Assembly: GCF_000195755.1 (NCBI RefSeq)
Contig: NC_002937.3
Location: forward strand, 2,940,001 to 2,972,000
Source: Nitratidesulfovibrio vulgaris str. Hildenborough
Lineage (GTDB): Bacteria > Desulfobacterota > Desulfovibrionia > Desulfovibrionales > Desulfovibrionaceae
Length of the DNA stretch: 32,000 nucleotides
Direction of reading: 5' to 3'
Both the position numbers and the translations under genes were made by a program. Under the pieces are notes generated by a model. It saw nothing but the letters and a program-made list of their open reading frames with translations. It made no database searches and was not told the DNA's origin. Position 1 is the first letter of the stretch. Every line of letters starts with the position of its first letter. Below are positions 596 through 9,135 of the stretch, piece by piece.

Positions 596-633
596 AAGAA
601 AGCGTCATTTGGCAACAAGGAAACGTCACTTGA
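596..633. promoter_or_regulatory. two 17-bp direct repeats, 21 bp apart (candidate operator pair)
   Basis: AAGAAAGCGTCATTTGG (596-612) and AAGGAAACGTCACTTGA (617-633) match at 13 of 17 positions. They lie two helical turns apart in the divergent HTH intergenic region. The second repeat covers the probable RBS and TTG start of the CI-like gene. Confidence 0.4.
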
Positions 634-1055
634 ATCAAACTTTCGACACCGTCGTTTTCACTGCGCGCCTGAAATCTCTTGAGAGTGCGCTCGGAAGCAC
701 ACGCAAAGTGATTGCCGAACGACTGGATATCCGCCCGCAAACATTGAAGAGTTATATTGACGGTGCGGCTCTTCCTAACGCCAAGGTTCTTGCTTCGATC
801 ATCAGTGAATTTTCCGTGAACCCCTACTGGCTCCTGCTCGGCTCTGGCGAAATGTTCGCTAACGAGACCGCTAGAGCTGTGAGCACCGAGCAAGACCCGG
901 TGTTGAGACGCCTCGAAGGTGTCGAAACCATGCTTGTTCGTCACGGCGCATCACCAGAGGAAATTCGCGACGCCCTACGCATGGCGCTCCGCACATTGAC
1001 TGCCGCCGGTGCCGATGATGAGGTGTCAGAAAAGCCCGAAGCCGCAGTCAGTTAA
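630..1055 (+). CDS. phage CI-repressor-like HTH protein
   Basis: ARLKSLESALGSTRKVIAERLDIRPQTLKSYIDG followed by NPYWLLLGSGEMF is the signature I associate with the phage CI repressor N-terminal HTH family. TTG at 630 has AAGGAA 7 nt upstream. The track start ATG 546 is the alternative, but it adds 28 aa that read like translated operator DNA. Confidence 0.7.
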   Translation: MNQTFDTVVFTARLKSLESALGSTRKVIAERLDIRPQTLKSYIDGAALPNAKVLASIISEFSVNPYWLLLGSGEMFANETARAVSTEQDPVLRRLEGVETMLVRHGASPEEIRDALRMALRTLTAAGADDEVSEKPEAAVS

Positions 1056-1167: not shown

Positions 1168-2241
1168 ATGGACTTTCGCGAGCGCATCTACACCTTGGCG
1201 GCCCGGATCGCAGAACTGCGCGCCCACACCATCACGGAAGAGGCAACCAAGAACGCCCTTATTCTCCCCTTCCTGCAAGCCCTTGGCTATGACACCTTCG
1301 ACCCGCGCGTGGTCATCCCCGAGTTCACCGCAGATGTGGGAACGAAGAAGGGTGAGCGAGTGGACTACGCCGTCATCCGCGACGGTCAGCCGGTCATGCT
1401 GATAGAAGCCAAGTGCTGCGGTGCTCCGCTCGACGCTGGCAAAGCAAGCCAACTGCTCCGATACTTCCACACGACACATAGTGCTCGCATCGGCATCCTC
1501 ACCGACGGCGTCGTGTACCAGTTCTTCTCAGACCTCGACCAGCCCAACGTCATGGACCAGAAGCCGTTCATGACCTTCGACTTCGCCGCCATCGAGGACG
1601 CCCTCATCCCTGAGCTGAAGAAGCTAGCCAACGATCGCTTCGACATCGAGGCGACCCTCTCCGCCGCGCAAGATTTGAAGCACATCCGCCAGTTGAAGAA
1701 GAAGGTCGCGGACGAATTCGCGACCCCTTCCGACGACCTCGTCCGTTACTTCGCCAAGGATGTGCACCACGGACAGTTCAGGGCCAACGTCGTTGAAGAC
1801 TATCGTGAGAAGCTCAAGCTCGCCTTCCAGCACCACATCAACGACATCATCAATGAACGGCTCCAGACCGCAATGCAGGGCAACGCTTACCCCGAACCCT
1901 TCGAGAAGCCGGAAGAAGAACAGGCCAAGCCCGTGGAGAAGGTCGTAGAGACGACTCAGGAAGAATGGGAAGCCTTCTACGCCATCAAGTCCATCCTGCG
2001 TGATGTGATTGCGCCTGAACGCATCTTCATGCGTGACGCCCAGAGCTACTGCGCCATCCTTCTGGATGACAACAACCGTAAGCCCATCTGCAGACTGCAC
2101 TTCAACGGCAAACAAAAGTACATCGGTCTATTCGACGAGAATAAGAAAGAGACTCGTCACCCAGTGGATGGCGTTGATGGATTGTATGCCTTTACAGAGG
2201 GATTACGAGAAGGGGCTGGGCGACACGATGACACTATTTGA
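1168..2241 (+). CDS. HsdR-N-terminal-type PD-(D/E)xK nuclease domain protein with uncharacterised C-terminal half
   Basis: RBS GGGAGA lies upstream of the ATG. The N-terminus EEATKNALILPFLQALGYD...PEF...ERVDYAV...PVMLIEAK...IGILTDGVVYQFF matches the type I restriction enzyme R N-terminal (HSDR_N_2-like) E/D/ExK nuclease core. Residues from about 130 to 357 are unassigned. Confidence 0.75.
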   Translation: MDFRERIYTLAARIAELRAHTITEEATKNALILPFLQALGYDTFDPRVVIPEFTADVGTKKGERVDYAVIRDGQPVMLIEAKCCGAPLDAGKASQLLRYFHTTHSARIGILTDGVVYQFFSDLDQPNVMDQKPFMTFDFAAIEDALIPELKKLANDRFDIEATLSAAQDLKHIRQLKKKVADEFATPSDDLVRYFAKDVHHGQFRANVVEDYREKLKLAFQHHINDIINERLQTAMQGNAYPEPFEKPEEEQAKPVEKVVETTQEEWEAFYAIKSILRDVIAPERIFMRDAQSYCAILLDDNNRKPICRLHFNGKQKYIGLFDENKKETRHPVDGVDGLYAFTEGLREGAGRHDDTI

Positions 2242-2312
2242 CATCGGGCTACAAGAGAGGCTCATGTCGCCTATTCTCTAAACAACTAATTGTATCAAAA
2301 GAGGGAAATGGT

Positions 2313-3650
2313 GTGGTCAAAACTGTTAATTGGCGAGACTTACTTGAGCCTCAGACAAAAATACGAGACCCACTTTACGGCTATATTTGGGTTACCGACG
2401 ATGAACTTCAGATCATTGATACCCCCATTTTTCAGCGTCTTCGCCGAGTAAACCAACTTGCACTGACAAAATATGTATATCCAACGGCTGAGCATTCACG
2501 CTTTGTGCATTCCCTCGGAGCAATGCATTGTGCGACACAAATCTTTACAGGAATCTTAAATAATACACATTCGTATCATGGCATACGAGCTATAGATTCA
2601 GCTAATATGCTTAGACGATTACGGTATGCTGCACTTTTACATGACATTGGCCATATCGCATTTTCGCATGCAGCAGAGAAGCTTATTCTTAACCCTTTGC
2701 AACATGAACATCTAGGGCAATTCATCATTGCCAATTATTCTCCTATATCTTCTATTCTCGGAGAGCACATCAAACCTGTCATAAGCATTTTGGCTGACAG
2801 CGTTACCCAAGACAACAGGCTGCTCCATCAAATCATATCGGGCCATCTTGATGCAGACAGAGCAGACTATCTCATGCGCGATTCGCATGCCTGCGGAGTC
2901 AAATACGGAGAATATGATTTTGAGCGCTACATGCAGGCATTCGGGGCTATAAACGAATCCAATGAGCTAAAACTGTTTGTCCACGAGCGCGACATATTCG
3001 TTATCGAATCATTTCTCGTAGCTAGACATCACTATAACATGCAAGTTCCTTACCATAGGACACGAATGGGGTACGACATTATTCTTGGTCGATTCCTTAA
3101 AGAATTTCTACCCAAGTGCGATGATGCCAAATTAGGCCTAACGGTTGAGGAAGGAGCATACACAAAGGTTGACCTTCAAAAATTTGAATTTTTTGATGAC
3201 TACTCCGTTTTCAACCACATCAAGCACGAGGCTCGTACGGGCAATCTCTGGGCAAACATGCTACTCCGCCAAGGACACCTATGCCCTGTCTACGACACGA
3301 CAGACTCTGTTGATCGGGGAGGAAAAGTTTTCAAAAAAATTATTCGCCGGCTTAAAGCGAAAAACTTCGTCGAAGATGATGACTTTTTCCAATGCCGCAA
3401 AGAGATCACGGCATCGAAGCTAATATCTACGGATGAAAAGGAAAATTCACTCGCTGACACAAGCCGAGAGACCATTTATGTGCGCACCAAGAGTGGAAAG
3501 CTCGTTGACATTGTCAAGCACTCGAATATTGTGCGCGCCCTACGCCCGGTGACAATCTACAGGATTTATACTAGTCAGAAACGTAAGTCCGAAGCTGAAG
3601 CGGTAATAGCCGATGTCTGCCGCAAGACTCAGGTCGACAGGAGGGGATAA
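2313..3650 (+). CDS. SAMHD1/EF1143-type HD-domain phosphohydrolase (putative dNTP triphosphohydrolase)
   Basis: The H...HD...D signature is present: RFVHSLGAMH, AALLHDIGHIAFSH, GHLDADRADYLMRDSHACGVKYG. The N-terminus reads IRDPLYGYIWV...IFQRLRRVNQL. GTG 2313 has AGAGGGA 6 nt upstream. The track start at 2238 is a TTG overlapping the upstream stop (TTGA) and remains an alternative. Confidence 0.85.
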   Translation: MVKTVNWRDLLEPQTKIRDPLYGYIWVTDDELQIIDTPIFQRLRRVNQLALTKYVYPTAEHSRFVHSLGAMHCATQIFTGILNNTHSYHGIRAIDSANMLRRLRYAALLHDIGHIAFSHAAEKLILNPLQHEHLGQFIIANYSPISSILGEHIKPVISILADSVTQDNRLLHQIISGHLDADRADYLMRDSHACGVKYGEYDFERYMQAFGAINESNELKLFVHERDIFVIESFLVARHHYNMQVPYHRTRMGYDIILGRFLKEFLPKCDDAKLGLTVEEGAYTKVDLQKFEFFDDYSVFNHIKHEARTGNLWANMLLRQGHLCPVYDTTDSVDRGGKVFKKIIRRLKAKNFVEDDDFFQCRKEITASKLISTDEKENSLADTSRETIYVRTKSGKLVDIVKHSNIVRALRPVTIYRIYTSQKRKSEAEAVIADVCRKTQVDRRG

Positions 3651-4175
3651 ATGGCTGACCAAAATGAAGCAATCGTTTGCGAAATGCTACGAGCGATGCA
3701 AGCGAAAGGTGTAGAATTAACCAAGATAAACCTCCAGAAGACAGCTTTTTTCCTCAAATCTTGGGGCGTATCACACGGCTTGCGCTTTAAACCTTACACA
3801 TACGGCCCCTATTCGAAAGACTTAGCCAAGCTACTAGACGACTTGACATTCTGGGACAGCCTCAAACTTGACACTAAAACCACCTACAGCATCGTGGATC
3901 TACCTGAGCATCAACTCAGCGAGCAAGATGCAACACGAATCAGAAATTGTGTTGACGCTCTCTATGACAACATAGCAGGGTCACGAAATCCTGATTTCAA
4001 TGAAATGGAAGTACTAGGAACTGTCCTCTACTGCCGCAACGCTCTTCTCGTTGCAGGTGAGGAGCCGACCGAGCCTGAGGTTATTAATCAGTTCAAGGCG
4101 TGGAAGGGGCAGGCCTATACCGACGAGCGCATTGCTGACGCCCTCAGACGAATAGAAAACAACATTCCTCAGTAA
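3651..4175 (+). CDS. small DUF4065/Panacea (SocA/GepA)-like protein
   Basis: The ATG immediately follows the HD-gene stop TAA (3648-3650), and AGGAGGGG lies inside the last HD codons. INLQKTAFFLKSWGVSHGLRFKPYTYGPYSKDLAKLLDDL resembles the DUF4065 core (KLQKLLY...W.yGPv...Y). The gene itself is solid; the family assignment is tentative. Confidence 0.5.
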   Translation: MADQNEAIVCEMLRAMQAKGVELTKINLQKTAFFLKSWGVSHGLRFKPYTYGPYSKDLAKLLDDLTFWDSLKLDTKTTYSIVDLPEHQLSEQDATRIRNCVDALYDNIAGSRNPDFNEMEVLGTVLYCRNALLVAGEEPTEPEVINQFKAWKGQAYTDERIADALRRIENNIPQ

Positions 4176-4200
4176 AACGAAGACTTTTACTTAACATTAT

Positions 4201-4236
4201 GAAAACGGCATCCCATCACACCGGGGTGCCGTTTTC
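4201..4236. terminator. bidirectional hairpin terminator between convergent genes
   Basis: GAAAACGGCATCCC / 8-nt loop / GGGGTGCCGTTTTC forms a 14-bp stem with one G-U pair. U-rich runs flank it on both strands. It sits between the stop at 4175 (+) and the stop at 4284 (-). Confidence 0.7.
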
Positions 4237-4283
4237 ATTCTTGACGGTCAGACAAATAGAAAAGTCAAAAAGCCATCAGGAAA

Positions 4284-4985
4284 TCATGTCGCGTTCCCGC
4301 CCCCCCCTTTCCGACCCCGCACATGGTATGCATAGCCTTCGTCCCCTTGAAATTTTTCAAGAAACTCATATTTATATTTGCAACGTTCTAATGCTACGTA
4401 CCCCCCCACAATGATGGCGAAGCCAGGAATGAGAAAGATGAGTTTATCAAAAGGAAAAGCAATATTTTTACAGTCCTGAGGATCCGACAGAACACTAAAT
4501 GATATACATAAATATGAAACAAGCCAAACAGCAGCAACCACTAAGCTCACCACCTGATTGATTTTGGATACAGAGTAGGGGGCACATTCAAGATGTCCCT
4601 TCGCATCATCCTGCCTGATTACTACCTGATACAACTTGCCATGCACATCGCCTTCCACAAGATCTACATGGGCCTCCCAGTTTTCTTGCCAGAATTTGCT
4701 TCCCTGCGAGCTACGAAACCAAGCCCAAGAAAGAACAAACCCAAGCCCACACACCAACAGCTTGAACCAGTCTGGATGCGGATATTTAGGATTCATGCTA
4801 GCGATAAGAGCTGCCCCAATTGTTGCAGTGAATCCCCAGAAATATATAGCTCGCTTCCAGTATAACTCTATTTCGAACTCTCGAGTTGCCCACGATCTTT
4901 CAAGCAACTTCTTTTTTAGCTCACGGTCAGAATCATCGTTCTCTTCAAGGCAACAGTCCTTCTTTATCACATCTAAATACTTCAT
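4284..4985 (-). CDS. four-TM membrane protein, unknown family
   Basis: Four hydrophobic helices: AIYFWGFTATIGAALIASM, WFKLLVCGLGFVLSWAWF, VVSLVVAAVWLVSYLCISFSVL and LIFLIPGFAIIVGGYVAL. The N-terminus is acidic and charged. The ATG (4985-4983) shares one nucleotide with the EcoRII-like stop (TAATG). The gene is AT-rich. Confidence 0.8.
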   Translation of the reverse strand: MKYLDVIKKDCCLEENDDSDRELKKKLLERSWATREFEIELYWKRAIYFWGFTATIGAALIASMNPKYPHPDWFKLLVCGLGFVLSWAWFRSSQGSKFWQENWEAHVDLVEGDVHGKLYQVVIRQDDAKGHLECAPYSVSKINQVVSLVVAAVWLVSYLCISFSVLSDPQDCKNIAFPFDKLIFLIPGFAIIVGGYVALERCKYKYEFLEKFQGDEGYAYHVRGRKGGGGNAT

Positions 4986-6184
4986 TAGCTACTCCACAAA
5001 TTGGCTTGAGCCATTCCTACGAACTCTCCAAGAGAAATCAGCTCTTCACGCTGTGCATCCTGAAACGAAGACTGAATCCCTCGCGGGATAACAAGCTGTA
5101 CCGCGTGATCGACCATTTCAGTCGTCTGTTGCACACTTATTCCGGGTTCAAGTGTCAGAAGATGCTTGCGGCTTACGCGGGCGGCTTCAGCCAGCACCTG
5201 CCTCCAGCGATCCTTGCAGGTTGATTTGACAGCCAGCATGCGAAGCTGGTCCTGTGGAAAATTCGTCTGGTGATACTCGCTACACCCAGGAAAAATGAAG
5301 TCGGGCTTTGAATTGTTCTCGGTGCGGCACTCCCGCGTGTAGGGTACGCCCCAGTCCTTGAGCACCTGCTCGACATGATTCTCCAGCGCCTTACCCGCCC
5401 TGGCCTTTCGTCGATTGAGCACGCTCAGGGCATACCCCGTAAAAGCGTCCACATCCTCGCCAAACCCTTCTCTTAGCCGTTGGGCAACCAGATGCCGTTC
5501 AAACATCCGGAACAGTCTCTCCTCCTGTTCGAACCACGCCACGAGAGCACCATCCGGATCATCTAGCGAACTGACATGAGGGAGTGAGTCGCGGGCATAC
5601 GTTGAAAATACGGCTGTAGGGGGAAAAGCAGAACCAAAGGTAGACAGCAGGTGTTCCAGTTGACCATCATCACCGGCAGCCGCAATTTCCACTCCCAATT
5701 CTTCAAGGATGTAGCTTCCGGCAAAACCGATGTCCTGCTCAAGCAACTCAGGCGAAGCAACCGCGTAGCCGCCATCTGCAGCGGGAGAAAGACCAAACAG
5801 CCAAGATAGCTGGCTTTCACCCGTGGTCCCCGCTGCTCCGATGATCACCAGCATGGAGCCATCCTCGCGTAGTCCGAAGACAATCATGTCTCCCTCGCGG
5901 GCCTCGGTCATGACTTCACAGGGTGGGAAGTACAGGCGATATTCCGTCCGTGTAGCATGGCGTTCCCTTGCATCATACCACGTAAGGGAGCCATCACAGG
6001 CGAGAGGCGACTCGTCGTCACCCAGAAGGATGAAGCGGGCAGCCAGGGTTCTCCGGTCATCCCCCAGCATATTGCGAAGCGCAGCCACACCATTGAACTC
6101 ATGCTGGTTCGATCGGGCAGGTTCGGCTTCCACGGCCCGCAAACGCTTGGCGGCCACGCAAAGAAACAGATCTGACAAACGCAT
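4985..6184 (-). CDS. type IIE restriction endonuclease, EcoRII family
   Basis: The N-terminus has SNQHEFNG (EcoRII-N effector domain). The C-terminus reads RRKARAGKALENHVEQ...KPDFIFPG...LAVKSTCKDRWRQVLAEA...KHLLTLEPGISVQQTTEM (EcoRII-C catalytic domain). At 399 aa it is full length. Confidence 0.9.
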   Translation of the reverse strand: MRLSDLFLCVAAKRLRAVEAEPARSNQHEFNGVAALRNMLGDDRRTLAARFILLGDDESPLACDGSLTWYDARERHATRTEYRLYFPPCEVMTEAREGDMIVFGLREDGSMLVIIGAAGTTGESQLSWLFGLSPAADGGYAVASPELLEQDIGFAGSYILEELGVEIAAAGDDGQLEHLLSTFGSAFPPTAVFSTYARDSLPHVSSLDDPDGALVAWFEQEERLFRMFERHLVAQRLREGFGEDVDAFTGYALSVLNRRKARAGKALENHVEQVLKDWGVPYTRECRTENNSKPDFIFPGCSEYHQTNFPQDQLRMLAVKSTCKDRWRQVLAEAARVSRKHLLTLEPGISVQQTTEMVDHAVQLVIPRGIQSSFQDAQREELISLGEFVGMAQANLWSS

Positions 6185-6323: not shown

Positions 6324-7400
6324 ATGACTTCCCAACTGTCTTTTTCCTTCATCGACCTGTTTGCTGGCATTGGCGGCATAAGGCTAGGCTTCGAAGCTGC
6401 AGGGGGCCGTTGTGTCATGTCGGCCGAATACGACAAGTATGCCCAGAAAACCTATCGGGCCTTCTTTGGTGAATCGCCCGATTTCTCAGAAATCATGTCT
6501 GTTTCGCCTCCTGGCGATATCACTAAGCTACCTCCGCACCTTGTACCAGATCACGACGTGCTTACCGGCGGCTTTCCCTGTCAGCCGTTCTCTCTGGCAG
6601 GCGTATCAAAGAAGCAGTCACTAGGCCGACCTCACGGCTTCGACGACCCCACGCAGGGAACCCTCTTCTTCAACGTGAAGGAGATCATCAAGAGCAAGCG
6701 GCCCAAGGCCTTCATGCTTGAGAACGTCAAGAATCTGTGTAGCCACGATTCCGGGCGAACGTTCCGTGTCATCCGGGAGTCTCTTGAGGGACTCGGCTAC
6801 AGGATGCACTACCGTGTCATTGATGCCCGTGACTGGATTCCCCAGCATCGGGAACGTATCTTCATGGTCGGCTTTCGCCTGCCGGAGGCTTGCCCTGCTG
6901 GCGCGCAGAAATGGGATGTGAAGGATTTCGACTTTGGGAAGGTCTCCAGGCGGGGGTCCCAGAAAGACCTTGAAAGCGTGATCGAGCCGGACGTGCCTGA
7001 AAAATACACACTGGGACCGGGAACGTGGAATACCCTGGTGAGGCACAAAGCTAATCACGCGGCCAAGGGCCAGGGCTTTGGCTACGGCATGATCACCCCC
7101 CCCTTCGCAGGACAGACGACTCGCACTCTCTCTGCCCGTTACCATAAGGACGGGGCAGAGATTCTTGTTGCCCAGCCGGACAGGCCGCGGCCTAGACGCC
7201 TGACCCCCCTGGAGTGTTGTAGACTGATGGGTTTTCCGAAGGAGTGCCAGCGCTGGTTTGACAGAAGGGATGAGGCGCATCCGCAGCCAGTCTCTGACTG
7301 TCAGGCCTACAGACAGTTCGGGAATTCGGTCGCCGTTCCAGTTGTGAAGGCCATTGCCCGGGCAATGGCAGAAGCCTTGAAGCGCAACGGTGCCATCTGA
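6324..7400 (+). CDS. dcm: DNA (cytosine-5)-methyltransferase, Dcm-like
   Basis: m5C methyltransferase motifs are present: FIDLFAGIGG (I), GGFPCQPFSLAG (IV), ENVKNL (VI), QHRERIFMVG (VIII), QFGNSV (X). It is divergent from the EcoRII-like gene and is followed by vsr. Confidence 0.95.
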   Translation: MTSQLSFSFIDLFAGIGGIRLGFEAAGGRCVMSAEYDKYAQKTYRAFFGESPDFSEIMSVSPPGDITKLPPHLVPDHDVLTGGFPCQPFSLAGVSKKQSLGRPHGFDDPTQGTLFFNVKEIIKSKRPKAFMLENVKNLCSHDSGRTFRVIRESLEGLGYRMHYRVIDARDWIPQHRERIFMVGFRLPEACPAGAQKWDVKDFDFGKVSRRGSQKDLESVIEPDVPEKYTLGPGTWNTLVRHKANHAAKGQGFGYGMITPPFAGQTTRTLSARYHKDGAEILVAQPDRPRPRRLTPLECCRLMGFPKECQRWFDRRDEAHPQPVSDCQAYRQFGNSVAVPVVKAIARAMAEALKRNGAI

Positions 7401-7408
7401 CAATCACC

Positions 7409-7819
7409 ATGGCGGACATCGTTGACAGCGCAACGCGCAGCCGGATGATGTCCGGCATAAAGGGGCGCAACACAAAACCGGAAAGACTTGTCCGGTCGTA
7501 TCTTCATGCAGCGGGGTTTCGCTTCAGACTCCATCGCAAGGATCTCCCCGGCTGCCCGGACATCGTACTCCCACGCTACAGGGCTATCATTTTTGTTCAC
7601 GGATGCTTCTGGCATCGCCATGAAGGCTGCAATCTTGCTTCCTTCCCGGCAACAAGAGTCGACTTCTGGGAAAGCAAATTTGCCGCCAATGTGGAGAGAG
7701 ACCGCAGAAATGAAACAGCTCTTGCCGAGGCTGGCTGGCGGGTCATCATTATCTGGGAATGCCAGATCAGGGCAGGAGAACTCTCCTGGCTGCCAGACGC
7801 AATCACGGGACAGGGATAA
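7409..7819 (+). CDS. vsr: very short patch repair endonuclease
   Basis: RSRMMSGIKGRNTKPERLVRSYLHAAGFRFRLH...LPGCPDIVLPRYRAIIFVHGCFWHRHEGC...FW..KF..N..RD...GWRVIIIWEC is the Vsr family signature. It starts 8 nt after dcm. Confidence 0.95.
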   Translation: MADIVDSATRSRMMSGIKGRNTKPERLVRSYLHAAGFRFRLHRKDLPGCPDIVLPRYRAIIFVHGCFWHRHEGCNLASFPATRVDFWESKFAANVERDRRNETALAEAGWRVIIIWECQIRAGELSWLPDAITGQG

Positions 7820-7835
7820 CCGGCAGGGAGGAGCC

Positions 7836-8699
7836 ATGCTTAAAATCGTGGGCTATCACAAGCGGACATGGCCTTTCGGCCCCGCAACCCTCCAGGAGGC
7901 AGCTGCCCACTTTGATGTCAAAGGTCTTTCGGTAGCAGGCTCTTACAGCCTTCATACAGAATATGCTGCAGGTTGTCGGCAATTCAGGAACACGGCCCTG
8001 AATGCCTTGGGTGCCATCACGGCAGCACACCAGCGAGGTATCCCGCAACTCTGGAAAAGCAAGGAGTGGGCAAACCAGTTCGCAGCCTTTGTGATTGAGT
8101 TGACCCAAGAAGCCATGCCTCCCGAAGTGATCGAGATCCACCCCCCCTTCAATGATTACTGCCCTTCATTCAGTGACCTTATCTTGCGTTACAAAGCGTT
8201 TGAGTCTGAAATTGCAAGAGTGTATCCCTCCAGCCTGATCGTAATCGAGAATCGTCATGGCACGCGCTACACCGGTGGCAAATTTCTTGTTAGCCGCCGT
8301 GAAGATTTGCTGGCGCTGACAGACCTGCTTGACGCAACAGACCTTTCGCTCAATCTTTGCCTTGATGTCCCGCAGCTCTTCTCCGCCCATTTCGGCCCTG
8401 CCCCACGGACCGAAGACGACATCGACAGGGTACTCACCCCTCTCATGGAGTGCCGCCACCGCATCACCTCGGTTCACATGTGGGGCAAGAAACGGAACAA
8501 GCGAGGGGGCATGCAGGCCCACTATGGCACGCTGGATACATGGCTCGGCCCAGAGCTGAAACGGCACTTGCTGCGACGCCTGCACGAACTTCTGGACGAT
8601 GACAGGACTCGCTATTTCGTGCCTGAGGTCAACGGCAGCCAGAGCGATATGGACGCCCTAGCAAAGGACATGATCGAAGCCGGCTTCACCTTCTGCTGA
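7836..8699 (+). CDS. xylose-isomerase-like / endonuclease IV-like TIM-barrel protein
   Basis: ATG 7836 is preceded by GGGAGGAG. The upstream part of track ORF 7488..8699 overlaps vsr and is rejected. Strand-end motifs EIHPPF, VIENRHG, LCLDVPQLF, SVHMWG, QAHYGTLD and FVPEVNG fall in the order of the metal-ligand motifs of the AP endonuclease 2 (Nfo/UvdE/xylose isomerase-like) fold. One His is replaced by Gln. Confidence 0.6.
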   Translation: MLKIVGYHKRTWPFGPATLQEAAAHFDVKGLSVAGSYSLHTEYAAGCRQFRNTALNALGAITAAHQRGIPQLWKSKEWANQFAAFVIELTQEAMPPEVIEIHPPFNDYCPSFSDLILRYKAFESEIARVYPSSLIVIENRHGTRYTGGKFLVSRREDLLALTDLLDATDLSLNLCLDVPQLFSAHFGPAPRTEDDIDRVLTPLMECRHRITSVHMWGKKRNKRGGMQAHYGTLDTWLGPELKRHLLRRLHELLDDDRTRYFVPEVNGSQSDMDALAKDMIEAGFTFC

Positions 8700-8706
8700 C
8701 CACACC

Positions 8707-9135
8707 ATGGACATGAAAGACCACTCGAAGGAATGCATCTTCTGCGCCCTGCAGCACTCCCCGCACATGGTGCGCGAGAACGCCACCTGCTACGCCATCC
8801 GCGACAAGTATGCAGTGACAGAGGGGCATCTACTCATCATCCCCAAGCGCCACACCGAAGACTACTTCAGCCTGACGCAGGCCGAAAAACGCGACGCCGA
8901 CGCCCTGTTGCGCGAACTGCGCGATGAACTGGCCAGTGCCGATGCCTCGATCAGCGGCTTCAATGTCGGTGTGAACTGTGGCGAGGATGCCGGACAGACG
9001 ATCTTTCACGCCCACATACATCTCATTCCCAGACGCAAAGGCGACACGCCCGACCCACGCGGTGGCGTGCGGGGCGTCATCCCCCACCGCATGGCCTACC
9101 CATCACCACCACTCACAAAAAACACTGTCATTTAA
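8707..9135 (+). CDS. HIT-family nucleotide hydrolase/transferase
   Basis: CIFC...GHLLIIPKRH...NCGEDAGQTIFHAHIHLIPRRKGD..DPRGGVRGVI contains the histidine triad HxHxHxx. It starts 7 nt after the TIM-barrel gene. Confidence 0.9.
   Translation: MDMKDHSKECIFCALQHSPHMVRENATCYAIRDKYAVTEGHLLIIPKRHTEDYFSLTQAEKRDADALLRELRDELASADASISGFNVGVNCGEDAGQTIFHAHIHLIPRRKGDTPDPRGGVRGVIPHRMAYPSPPLTKNTVI

Follow-up and report, generated by a model that had tools for sequence, protein, structure and literature searches.

A SAMHD1-type HD phosphohydrolase homologue and a stand-alone relative of the DarG C-terminal domain form a conserved gene pair carried by a prophage of Nitratidesulfovibrio vulgaris

Introduction

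The depletion of deoxynucleoside triphosphates (dNTPs) by SAMHD1-type enzymes is a conserved antiviral strategy, and the means by which cells keep such enzymes harmless are an active question. In bacteria, nucleotide depletion is an established antiviral mechanism, exemplified by single-gene dGTPase defence (Tal et al., 2022). In Clover, a two-gene anti-phage operon, the dNTPase CloA is restrained in uninfected cells by its partner CloB, a nucleotidyltransferase that makes the inhibitory nucleotide p3diT (Yamaguchi et al., 2025). A 32,000-nt stretch of the genome of Nitratidesulfovibrio vulgaris str. Hildenborough (DvH; NC_002937.3, positions 2,940,001 to 2,972,000; referred to here as the window) carries a pair of abutting genes, DVU2838 and DVU2839, that we call HD-YwgA. 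As judged from sequence comparison and modelling, DVU2838 is a homologue of the SAMHD1/EF1143-type (COG1078) HD (d)NTP triphosphohydrolases with an intact active site, and DVU2839 is a stand-alone homologue of the toxin-binding C-terminal domain of DarG, in effect a DarG that lacks the macrodomain. The two genes are conserved and inherited together in bacteria and archaea.

Two families of neutralising proteins are relevant to the smaller gene. According to Deep et al. (2023), as cited in PMC13621843, DarT is bound directly and inhibited by the C-terminal domain of DarG, and complexes between PanA proteins and their toxins are described by Kurata et al. (2022); in a 2026 paper, DUF4065 proteins are described as homologous to the inhibitory C-terminal domain of DarG. 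Dataset S1 of Kurata et al. (2022) contains a putative PanA-associated toxin cluster from five Firmicutes genomes, pT33/T34 (CDD "YdhJ", "HD domain-containing protein"), marked "notest"; no mention of this HD/YdhJ cluster was found in the main text of the paper as searched. Like HD-YwgA, it consists of a COG1078-type HD gene followed, at tight spacing and in the order T|A, by a gene for a Panacea-type protein. It differs in that DVU2839 itself misses the Panacea model PF13274 and in that the HD-YwgA genes diverge together without partner swapping. The first-pass annotation of this DNA, made from its letters alone, knew of no described defence system with this pairing. That statement is weakened by this dataset, in which the pairing had already been catalogued, though neither tested nor discussed; if DVU2839 does restrain DVU2838 by direct binding, an untested supplementary entry would become a system open to experiment.

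The partner is homologous in sequence and fold to the DarT-binding domain of DarG, and the profile of its family next retrieves proteins of DarG size (~350 aa). HD-YwgA differs from DarTG in having neither a macrodomain (the 174 aa of DVU2839 correspond to the C-terminal half of the DarG models) nor DarT; the gene beside it encodes an HD phosphohydrolase in place of an ADP-ribosyltransferase, and the partner is dispensable in transposon sequencing (Tn-seq). Clover provides an earlier example of a two-gene operon in which one product restrains the other, a dNTPase, as proposed here for HD-YwgA, but DVU2839 is small and has no recognisable enzyme domain, and restraint would take the form of direct protein binding. 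With SAMHD1, EF1143 and the bacterial dGTPases, DVU2838 shares the HD fold, catalytic and allosteric residues and a C-terminal lobe; the literature on single-gene defence, in the parts consulted, describes stand-alone dGTPases without an obligate small partner, whereas HD-YwgA has one. By homology, HD-YwgA combines a candidate neutraliser of the Panacea/DarG type with a predicted SAMHD1-type effector, and it is neither DarTG, nor Clover, nor a dGTPase recognised by PADLOC.

The HD protein DVU2838

The only Pfam match of DVU2838 is to the HD domain and is weak (24.9 bits). Its relationship becomes clear from sequence matches to proteins of solved structure: 2hek (7e-36), 2q14 (2e-33), EF1143 (2o6i; 2e-27) and human SAMHD1 (~1e-18). 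Foldseek matches its AlphaFold2 (AF2) model (pLDDT 86), with a probability of 1.0 and over the whole length, to 2hek, 2q14, EF1143 and the fungal and human SAMHD1 proteins. TM scores against 2hek are 0.73/0.87, and the alignments with the SAMHD1 family span ~420-490 columns and include the C-terminal lobe, in agreement with the C-terminal domain reported in the first pass.

Aligned with 2hek, 2q14, EF1143 and SAMHD1, DVU2838 retains the whole H / HD / D signature together with the other catalytic His, Glu and Asp residues. R63, H66, H110/D111, H114, H119, H131/E132, D180/D182, D185 and R189/D190 are invariant in 23 homologues paired with a partner gene and in 56 unpaired ones, and the position of Y186 is Y or F among the paired homologues. 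For this mapping, we took the active-site set of SAMHD1 to be H167, H206, D207, H210, H215, H233/E234 and D311, with R164, Y315 and D319. Sequence, fold and invariance in 79 homologues therefore agree on the family and the complete metal-binding signature that had been read from the letters. D36, Q41 and R44 are presumably the equivalents of the guanine-specific triad of allosteric site 1 in SAMHD1, of which we likewise assume the numbering; all three are kept in the paired HD clade, and D36 is replaced in the unpaired Bacteroidota-type clade. E31, A74, R104, L188, C194, R251, R417 and Y419 are clade-specific. From its family membership, the substrate of DVU2838 would be dNTPs.

The dGTPase models of the defence collections align with the N-terminal 90-100 residues of DVU2838 only. 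For PADLOC PDLC02374, it reaches model positions 43-129 of 395 (E 1.6e-6), far under the cut-off; for the anti-phage dGTPase model of NCBIfam, NF041026, it scores 16.6 bits against a cut-off of 400 bits. Neither protein is matched over its full length by any PADLOC model, and the absence of a call by defence-finding tools had been foreseen.

The partner protein DVU2839

The motif LQKTAFF...FKPYTYGPYSKDL is present in DVU2839 and is the conserved core of its family, in which K30, Y51-G52-P53, E120, T124 and K152 (DVU2839 numbering) are core residues. DVU2839 has no Pfam match of any kind, PF13274 included, even at E<=10. It matches positions 163-327 of the 329 of the PADLOC DarG model (E 2e-15) and positions 168-337 of the 338 of NCBIfam antitoxin_DarG (E 6e-12, far under the 250-bit cut-off), as well as 7yk3_B, the DarG chain of the M. 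tuberculosis DarT-DarG complex (E 1.5e-4 as a single sequence, 1e-10 with a 50-sequence profile). The AF2 model computed from a family alignment (pLDDT 94.4, pTM 0.90) predicts a winged-helix-like N-terminal unit followed by a helical bundle, and its sole significant Foldseek match in the PDB is to chains B and D of 7yk3 (probability 1.0, TM 0.62-0.68). Structure prediction and Foldseek, the check proposed in the first pass, thus place both proteins: DVU2838 in the SAMHD1 family and DVU2839 with DarG. The winged-helix half also has weak fold matches to regulators of the DtxR, PadR and MarR types, which are not significant (E>0.5), and there is no nucleotidyltransferase among the PDB fold matches of DVU2839.

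The DUF4065/Panacea-like core proposed in the first pass holds at the level of the superfamily, through homology to the DarG C-terminal domain and through relatives that carry PF13274 (precomputed matches in 4 of the 120 best family members); DVU2839 itself is not a member at the level of the PF13274 model. The names in use reflect both sides of this relationship. The exact protein is a "YwgA family protein" at NCBI and "Antitoxin SocA-like Panacea domain-containing" in UniRef, and its relatives at JGI are labelled "uncharacterized protein YwgA". The family is large (~6,550 clusters at 50% identity with E<=1e-3, 2,129 at E<=1e-10), and nearly all of the best 150 matches are stand-alone proteins of ~165-195 aa. 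A literature search on ywfO/ywgA gave nothing functional for YwgA or YwfO. The namesake gene ywgA of B. subtilis presumably adjoins a COG1078 gene, ywfO. Charge complementarity or DNA mimicry was also considered and rejected: the partner has a pI of 5.0 and the HD protein one of 8.7 in DvH, but this pattern is not kept across the family.

Organization of the gene pair

The longest open reading frame (ORF) of DVU2838 starts at TTG 2238, but the annotation and gene callers prefer GTG 2313, which has GAGGGA (2301-2306) 6 nt upstream. The TAA of DVU2838 (3648-3650) directly abuts the ATG of DVU2839 at 3651, and the Shine-Dalgarno sequence of DVU2839, AGGAGGGG, lies inside the HD coding sequence. 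Both features, pointed out in the first pass, can be read directly from the DNA, and by this arrangement DVU2839 is predicted to be translationally coupled to DVU2838. Downstream, the GC-rich hairpin between the convergent genes DVU2839 and DVU2840 has a folding energy of -29.8 kcal/mol (z = -5.75), which none of 200 shuffles equals, and includes a terminator-like site on the minus strand (4223-4206). The HD-YwgA operon probably ends at this hairpin, which would act as an intrinsic terminator in both directions. No terminator-like site was seen between DVU2837, which encodes an HSDR_N protein, and DVU2838, and these two genes may be co-transcribed.

In records with the same DNA as positions 2100-4300 of the window (our loci L082 and L084), the HD gene is annotated as 445 aa, as 47 + 258 aa, or as 258 aa only. 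Pseudogenization was rejected as an explanation for the 47- and 258-aa fragments, because the DNA is 100% identical to that of the window; the inconsistencies are start-codon or gene-caller artefacts, probably caused by the atypical GC content.

Conservation and co-inheritance

An alignment scan for the HD protein, with one genome per species, gave 80 HD loci, and a YwgA-like ORF lies directly downstream on the same strand in 24 of them. Every one of the 12 loci whose HD identity reaches 40% has the partner, which is also found in Dehalococcoidia, Lachnospiraceae, Verrucomicrobiota and two archaea of the Methanomicrobia; overall, the abutting same-strand pair recurs in Desulfobacterota, Chloroflexota, Firmicutes, Verrucomicrobiota, Ignavibacteriota-like bacteria and Methanomicrobia. 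At most loci, the junction is an ATGA or TAATG overlap or a gap of less than ~40 nt. In a neighbour-joining tree, the partner-bearing HD genes (22 and that of the window) form one clade, inside which two members (L019 and L029) are partner-less; the Bacteroidota and Erysipelotrichales clades have no partner in any locus on the tree. The distance matrices of the HD and partner proteins are strongly correlated (Mantel r=0.95, a value reached by 0 of 2000 permutations), and the two genes therefore travel and diverge together.

Look-ups from the partner side agree with those from the HD side. For three of three diverged partners, the gene directly upstream encodes HD and HD_assoc_2 domains, and the look-up for N. 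oxamicus leads to the same locus as the HD scan. A metagenome scan with the partner profile found 18 stand-alone partner-like ORFs with an HD gene upstream and one (L172) with it downstream; L106 and L137 are near-identical orphans without an HD gene, and a few loci were uninformative. The recurrence of an HD homologue followed by a DUF4065-like gene, posed as a question in the first pass, is thus borne out by 24 of 80 loci, a single clade and the partner-side look-ups.

About 50 further metagenome matches are proteins of ~330-450 aa (most ~350) that carry the domain at their C-terminal end and have no adjoining HD gene; their length and the placement of the domain resemble those of DarG. At L112 (1023-2815), a YwgA-like ORF of its own follows a macrodomain-like ORF, which in turn follows a DarT-like ORF with the motif FYFAPRSPMLY; the latter two were recognized by eye from their motifs, and the arrangement looks like a split DarG. 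At L172 (3962-5834), the order is reversed, and the YwgA-like gene overlaps the downstream HD gene. These two loci bear on the evolutionary relation of DarG and HD-YwgA. A distant YwgA candidate behind an outgroup HD gene (L078) was discarded; it is Nudix-like by eye and has an hhalign probability of 0.2%.

Base composition and genomic context

In DvH, the pair lies in a prophage. Genes for an integrase and Phage_CP76 precede the window, which itself contains a helix-turn-helix (HTH) repressor gene and Mu/P2-like baseplate and tail genes. The cargo comprises, in this order, an HSDR_N protein, the HD protein, YwgA, 8xMP, EcoRII-C, Dcm, Vsr, a 287-aa protein and a HIT protein. HD, YwgA and the convergent 8xMP gene form a low-GC block, with DNA of 55-70% GC around it; GC at third codon positions (GC3) is 0.44 for HD, 0.51 for the partner and 0.44 for 8xMP, against 0.57-0.74 for neighbouring genes. 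The block is horizontally acquired cargo within the prophage.

The same bias is found elsewhere. Paired HD genes have a lower GC content than their flanks in 19 of 19 loci (median -8.2 points) and a lower GC3 than neighbouring genes in 18 of 19 (median -15 points), whereas 53-54 unpaired HD homologues differ from their surroundings by +0.3 (GC) and +1.9 (GC3) points (Mann-Whitney p ~1e-9 for the paired/unpaired contrast). In almost all loci, the module thus has the character of accessory DNA acquired by horizontal transfer, in contrast to its unpaired relatives, which look like housekeeping genes. Its AT-richness could stem from recurrent acquisition out of low-GC donors or from selection for AT-rich sequence.

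The closest pair among the reference genomes scanned, that of N. oxamicus (L091:8067-10728; 62% HD identity), lies between an oligopeptide ABC transporter and NrdD/NrdG. Other pairs are found near isocitrate dehydrogenase, near Maf and Tmk-TatD, near cytidylate kinase and inside a polysaccharide cluster. The immediate upstream neighbour is HsdR at L027 and a SNF2/ResIII helicase at L021; a D5-type primase lies ~1.9 kb upstream at L015, an integrase fragment lies just upstream at L093, and the pair at L085 has Uma2, NYN and PIN genes in its vicinity, at most a few kb away. As a side observation, the N. oxamicus pair is ~1.9 kb from NrdD, an anaerobic ribonucleotide reductase with an ATP-cone, which would place a dNTP degrader beside dNTP synthesizers; the radical-SAM gene next to NrdD probably encodes its activase.

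Transposon insertion data

Published Tn-seq data for DvH (Trotter et al., 2023, Supplementary Table 5, wild type / JW710) classify both genes as non-essential. DVU2838 has 123 / 350 central insertion positions and GC-normalized reads of 1.93 / 1.83, with 39 positions in Fels et al. (2013); the partner DVU2839 has 28 / 88 central positions and reads of 0.14 / 0.34, with 19 positions in the older library. Low-GC genes listed nearby in the table of Trotter et al. mostly have 0.1-0.5 normalized reads (DVU2840 has 1.31 in one library), beside which the values for DVU2839 are unremarkable. The excess of insertions in the HD gene, about four-fold or greater over most low-GC neighbours, is suggestive and compatible with a fitness cost of the enzyme. 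Since insertions in DVU2839 are viable, a classical lethal toxin-antitoxin relation is unsupported under laboratory growth.

Possible functions

We favour, with moderate confidence, the reading of HD-YwgA as an accessory or defence module built on a protein-restrained dNTPase and carried by the prophage against superinfecting phages. The YwgA-family partner would bind the HD enzyme directly and restrain or gate it, as its homologues suggest: direct binding and inhibition are proposed by analogy with the DarG C-terminal domain, which binds and inhibits DarT, and with PanA proteins, which are found in complex with their toxins. The partner would keep the dNTPase harmless to the lysogen, and the enzyme, perhaps released on infection, would deplete dNTPs and so block the superinfecting phage. 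Such restraint by direct binding would be a second, protein-based solution beside the nucleotide signal of Clover. It would also provide a function for the YwgA family and for a clade of uncharacterized COG1078 enzymes in bacteria and archaea. The bolder proposition, that HD-YwgA represents a widespread anti-phage class in which a DarG-C-terminal/Panacea-fold "safety catch" and infection sensor sits on a SAMHD1-type dNTPase, is possible but less probable; if true, it would make HD-YwgA the first case in which a Panacea-type protein, and not a nucleotide, gates an effector of nucleotide depletion, and it would connect DarTG, PanAT and SAMHD1-like immunity across bacteria and archaea. DvH is genetically tractable, and barcoded transposon mutants of DVU2838 and DVU2839 exist.

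Several observations weigh against a role in defence. Most copies elsewhere lie among metabolic genes (127 flanking ORFs at 19 loci, mostly metabolic). The enrichment beside defence genes that the first-pass annotation had raised is weak, with two restriction or helicase neighbours, a few of mobile-element or toxin type and the rest metabolic, as judged roughly from Pfam/PADLOC family counts of these ORFs. A tblastn search with the partner against 50,697 phage records gave no match; a partner-profile scan of IMG/VR gave three loci with domain-bearing proteins of ~360 aa and no HD gene detected; and the matches among 72,556 plasmids are almost all DarG-type macro-domain proteins, with up to 93% query coverage. 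HD matches in phage records are partial (~30% identical, <=66% of the protein covered), and on these grounds a phage-borne family was ruled out. The dispensability of DVU2839 in three libraries, finally, implies that unrestrained HD is non-lethal in laboratory growth or that the operon is poorly expressed.

These observations are also part of the case for the main rival, a non-immune housekeeping or auxiliary nucleotide-pool enzyme, in which YwgA would be a structural or regulatory subunit of a heteromeric hydrolase of dNTPs or non-canonical NTPs. Its role would be dNTP homeostasis or pool sanitation, with the prophage copy a passenger or auxiliary metabolic gene. Such an enzyme would fit the ordinary chromosomal contexts, several of them by NrdD/NrdG, Maf, Tmk-TatD or cytidylate kinase, and the dispensability of both genes in DvH. 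It would also fit a single HD clade whose members strictly co-diverge with their partners without exchanging them, the failure to find the pair in the phage and plasmid collections searched, and the presumed adjacency of ywgA and ywfO in B. subtilis. We nevertheless consider it unlikely, given the foreign composition of paired HD genes at 19 of 19 loci, unlike that of unpaired homologues, the position of the DvH pair as prophage cargo beside a restriction system, the fact that the sole characterized homologues of the partner are antitoxin domains, and a patchy distribution with loss of the partner within the clade (L029).

Another alternative is a classical type II (PanAT-like) toxin-antitoxin addiction module, in which the HD protein would be a growth-arresting toxin and YwgA a labile antitoxin, and the pair would stabilize the prophage. 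The HD/YdhJ cluster of Kurata et al. (2022; order T|A, gaps of -17 to +23 nt), the DarG-domain homology of the partner and the abutting or overlapping genes on a mobile element all suggest such a system, and HD-YwgA is indeed a compact mobile two-gene unit by its junctions, terminator hairpin and GC deficit. Loss of the presumed antitoxin, however, is not lethal in Tn-seq: DVU2839 tolerates many insertions in three libraries, whereas the nearby repressor gene DVU2836 is scored as essential. Moreover, the published cluster is marked "notest", and the HD-YwgA pairs are mostly chromosomal and co-diverge, whereas PanA typically swaps partners promiscuously, which makes this alternative quite improbable.

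The HD protein might instead act on a substrate other than dNTPs. It could be a nuclease, could hydrolyse signalling nucleotides or could be an RNA 5'-triphosphatase, and the winged-helix partner would direct it to nucleic acid or serve as a SocA-like proteolytic adaptor. The PDB entries of its two best structural matches, the structural-genomics proteins 2hek and 2q14, assign no activity; the N-terminal half of the partner is winged-helix-like; SocA, a Panacea protein, is a ClpXP adaptor (Kurata et al., 2022); and papers of the Danchin group speculate on pyrophosphohydrolase or RNA 5'-end roles for YwfO-like proteins. This possibility is nonetheless very doubtful, as all catalytic residues of SAMHD1, most of the substrate-pocket residues and the guanine-specific allosteric triad are conserved, the characterized relatives EF1143 and SAMHD1 are dNTPases, and the winged-helix matches fall short of significance. 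Chance adjacency of two functionally unlinked ORFs, or an annotation artefact, for which weak Pfam scores (none for the partner) might speak, is excluded by the recurrence of the abutting same-strand pair across several bacterial phyla and Methanomicrobia, and both proteins have high-confidence structure models.

Neighbouring genes in the prophage

The features of the locus are listed in Table 1. DVU2836, upstream of the cargo region, was called essential in both DvH transposon libraries, which fits a repressor of a still-inducible prophage. In the cI-rexAB arrangement of phage lambda, accessory genes lie downstream of the repressor; by analogy, the position of HD-YwgA downstream of DVU2836 and on the same strand suggests expression in the lysogen. 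DVU2837 may be a defence gene in its own right, and 71 nt separate its end from the HD start. The HSDR_N protein that it encodes and the 8xMP protein were rejected as components of the module, because neither has a homologue in the other loci compared, including every pair-bearing one; a literature search on 8xMP gave nothing functional.

Table 1. Features of the HD-YwgA locus and its surroundings, in window coordinates
Feature	Position	Strand	Remarks
DVU2836, HTH_19 repressor-like gene	609-1055	+	strand of the pair; upstream of cargo region
DVU2837, 357 aa	1168-2241		N-terminal HSDR_N (PD-(D/E)xK nuclease-like), C-terminal half unassigned; non-essential in Tn-seq
Low-GC block (HD, partner, convergent 8xMP gene)	2100-5050		~40-50% GC against ~66% in the rest of the window
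DVU2838, HD-protein gene, 445 aa	2313-3650	+	genome 2,942,313-2,943,650 (DvH annotation, gene callers)
Shine-Dalgarno sequence of DVU2839	3639-3646	+	within 3' end of DVU2838 coding sequence
DVU2839, YwgA-family protein gene, 174 aa	3651-4175	+	genome 2,943,651-2,944,175
GC-rich hairpin with A and T runs on its sides	4199-4237		between convergent DVU2839 and DVU2840
8xMP membrane protein gene (PF24838)	4284-4985	-	convergent to DVU2839; low GC
EcoRII-C endonuclease gene	4985-6184	-	complete gene
Dcm methylase gene	6324-7400		restriction-modification-repair cluster
Vsr gene	7409-7819		restriction-modification-repair cluster
287-aa protein without family match	within ORF 7488-8699; 7836-9135 with the HIT gene		end of prophage cargo region
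DVU2845, HIT-family hydrolase gene, 429 nt	8707-9135		genome 2,948,707-2,949,135

The 8xMP and EcoRII genes overlap by one base, 4985, at the end of the latter, and the 8xMP gene looks translationally coupled to the EcoRII gene, yet its GC3 is 0.44 and that of the EcoRII gene 0.57. The HIT hydrolase DVU2845 is another nucleotide-handling enzyme near the prophage defence genes.

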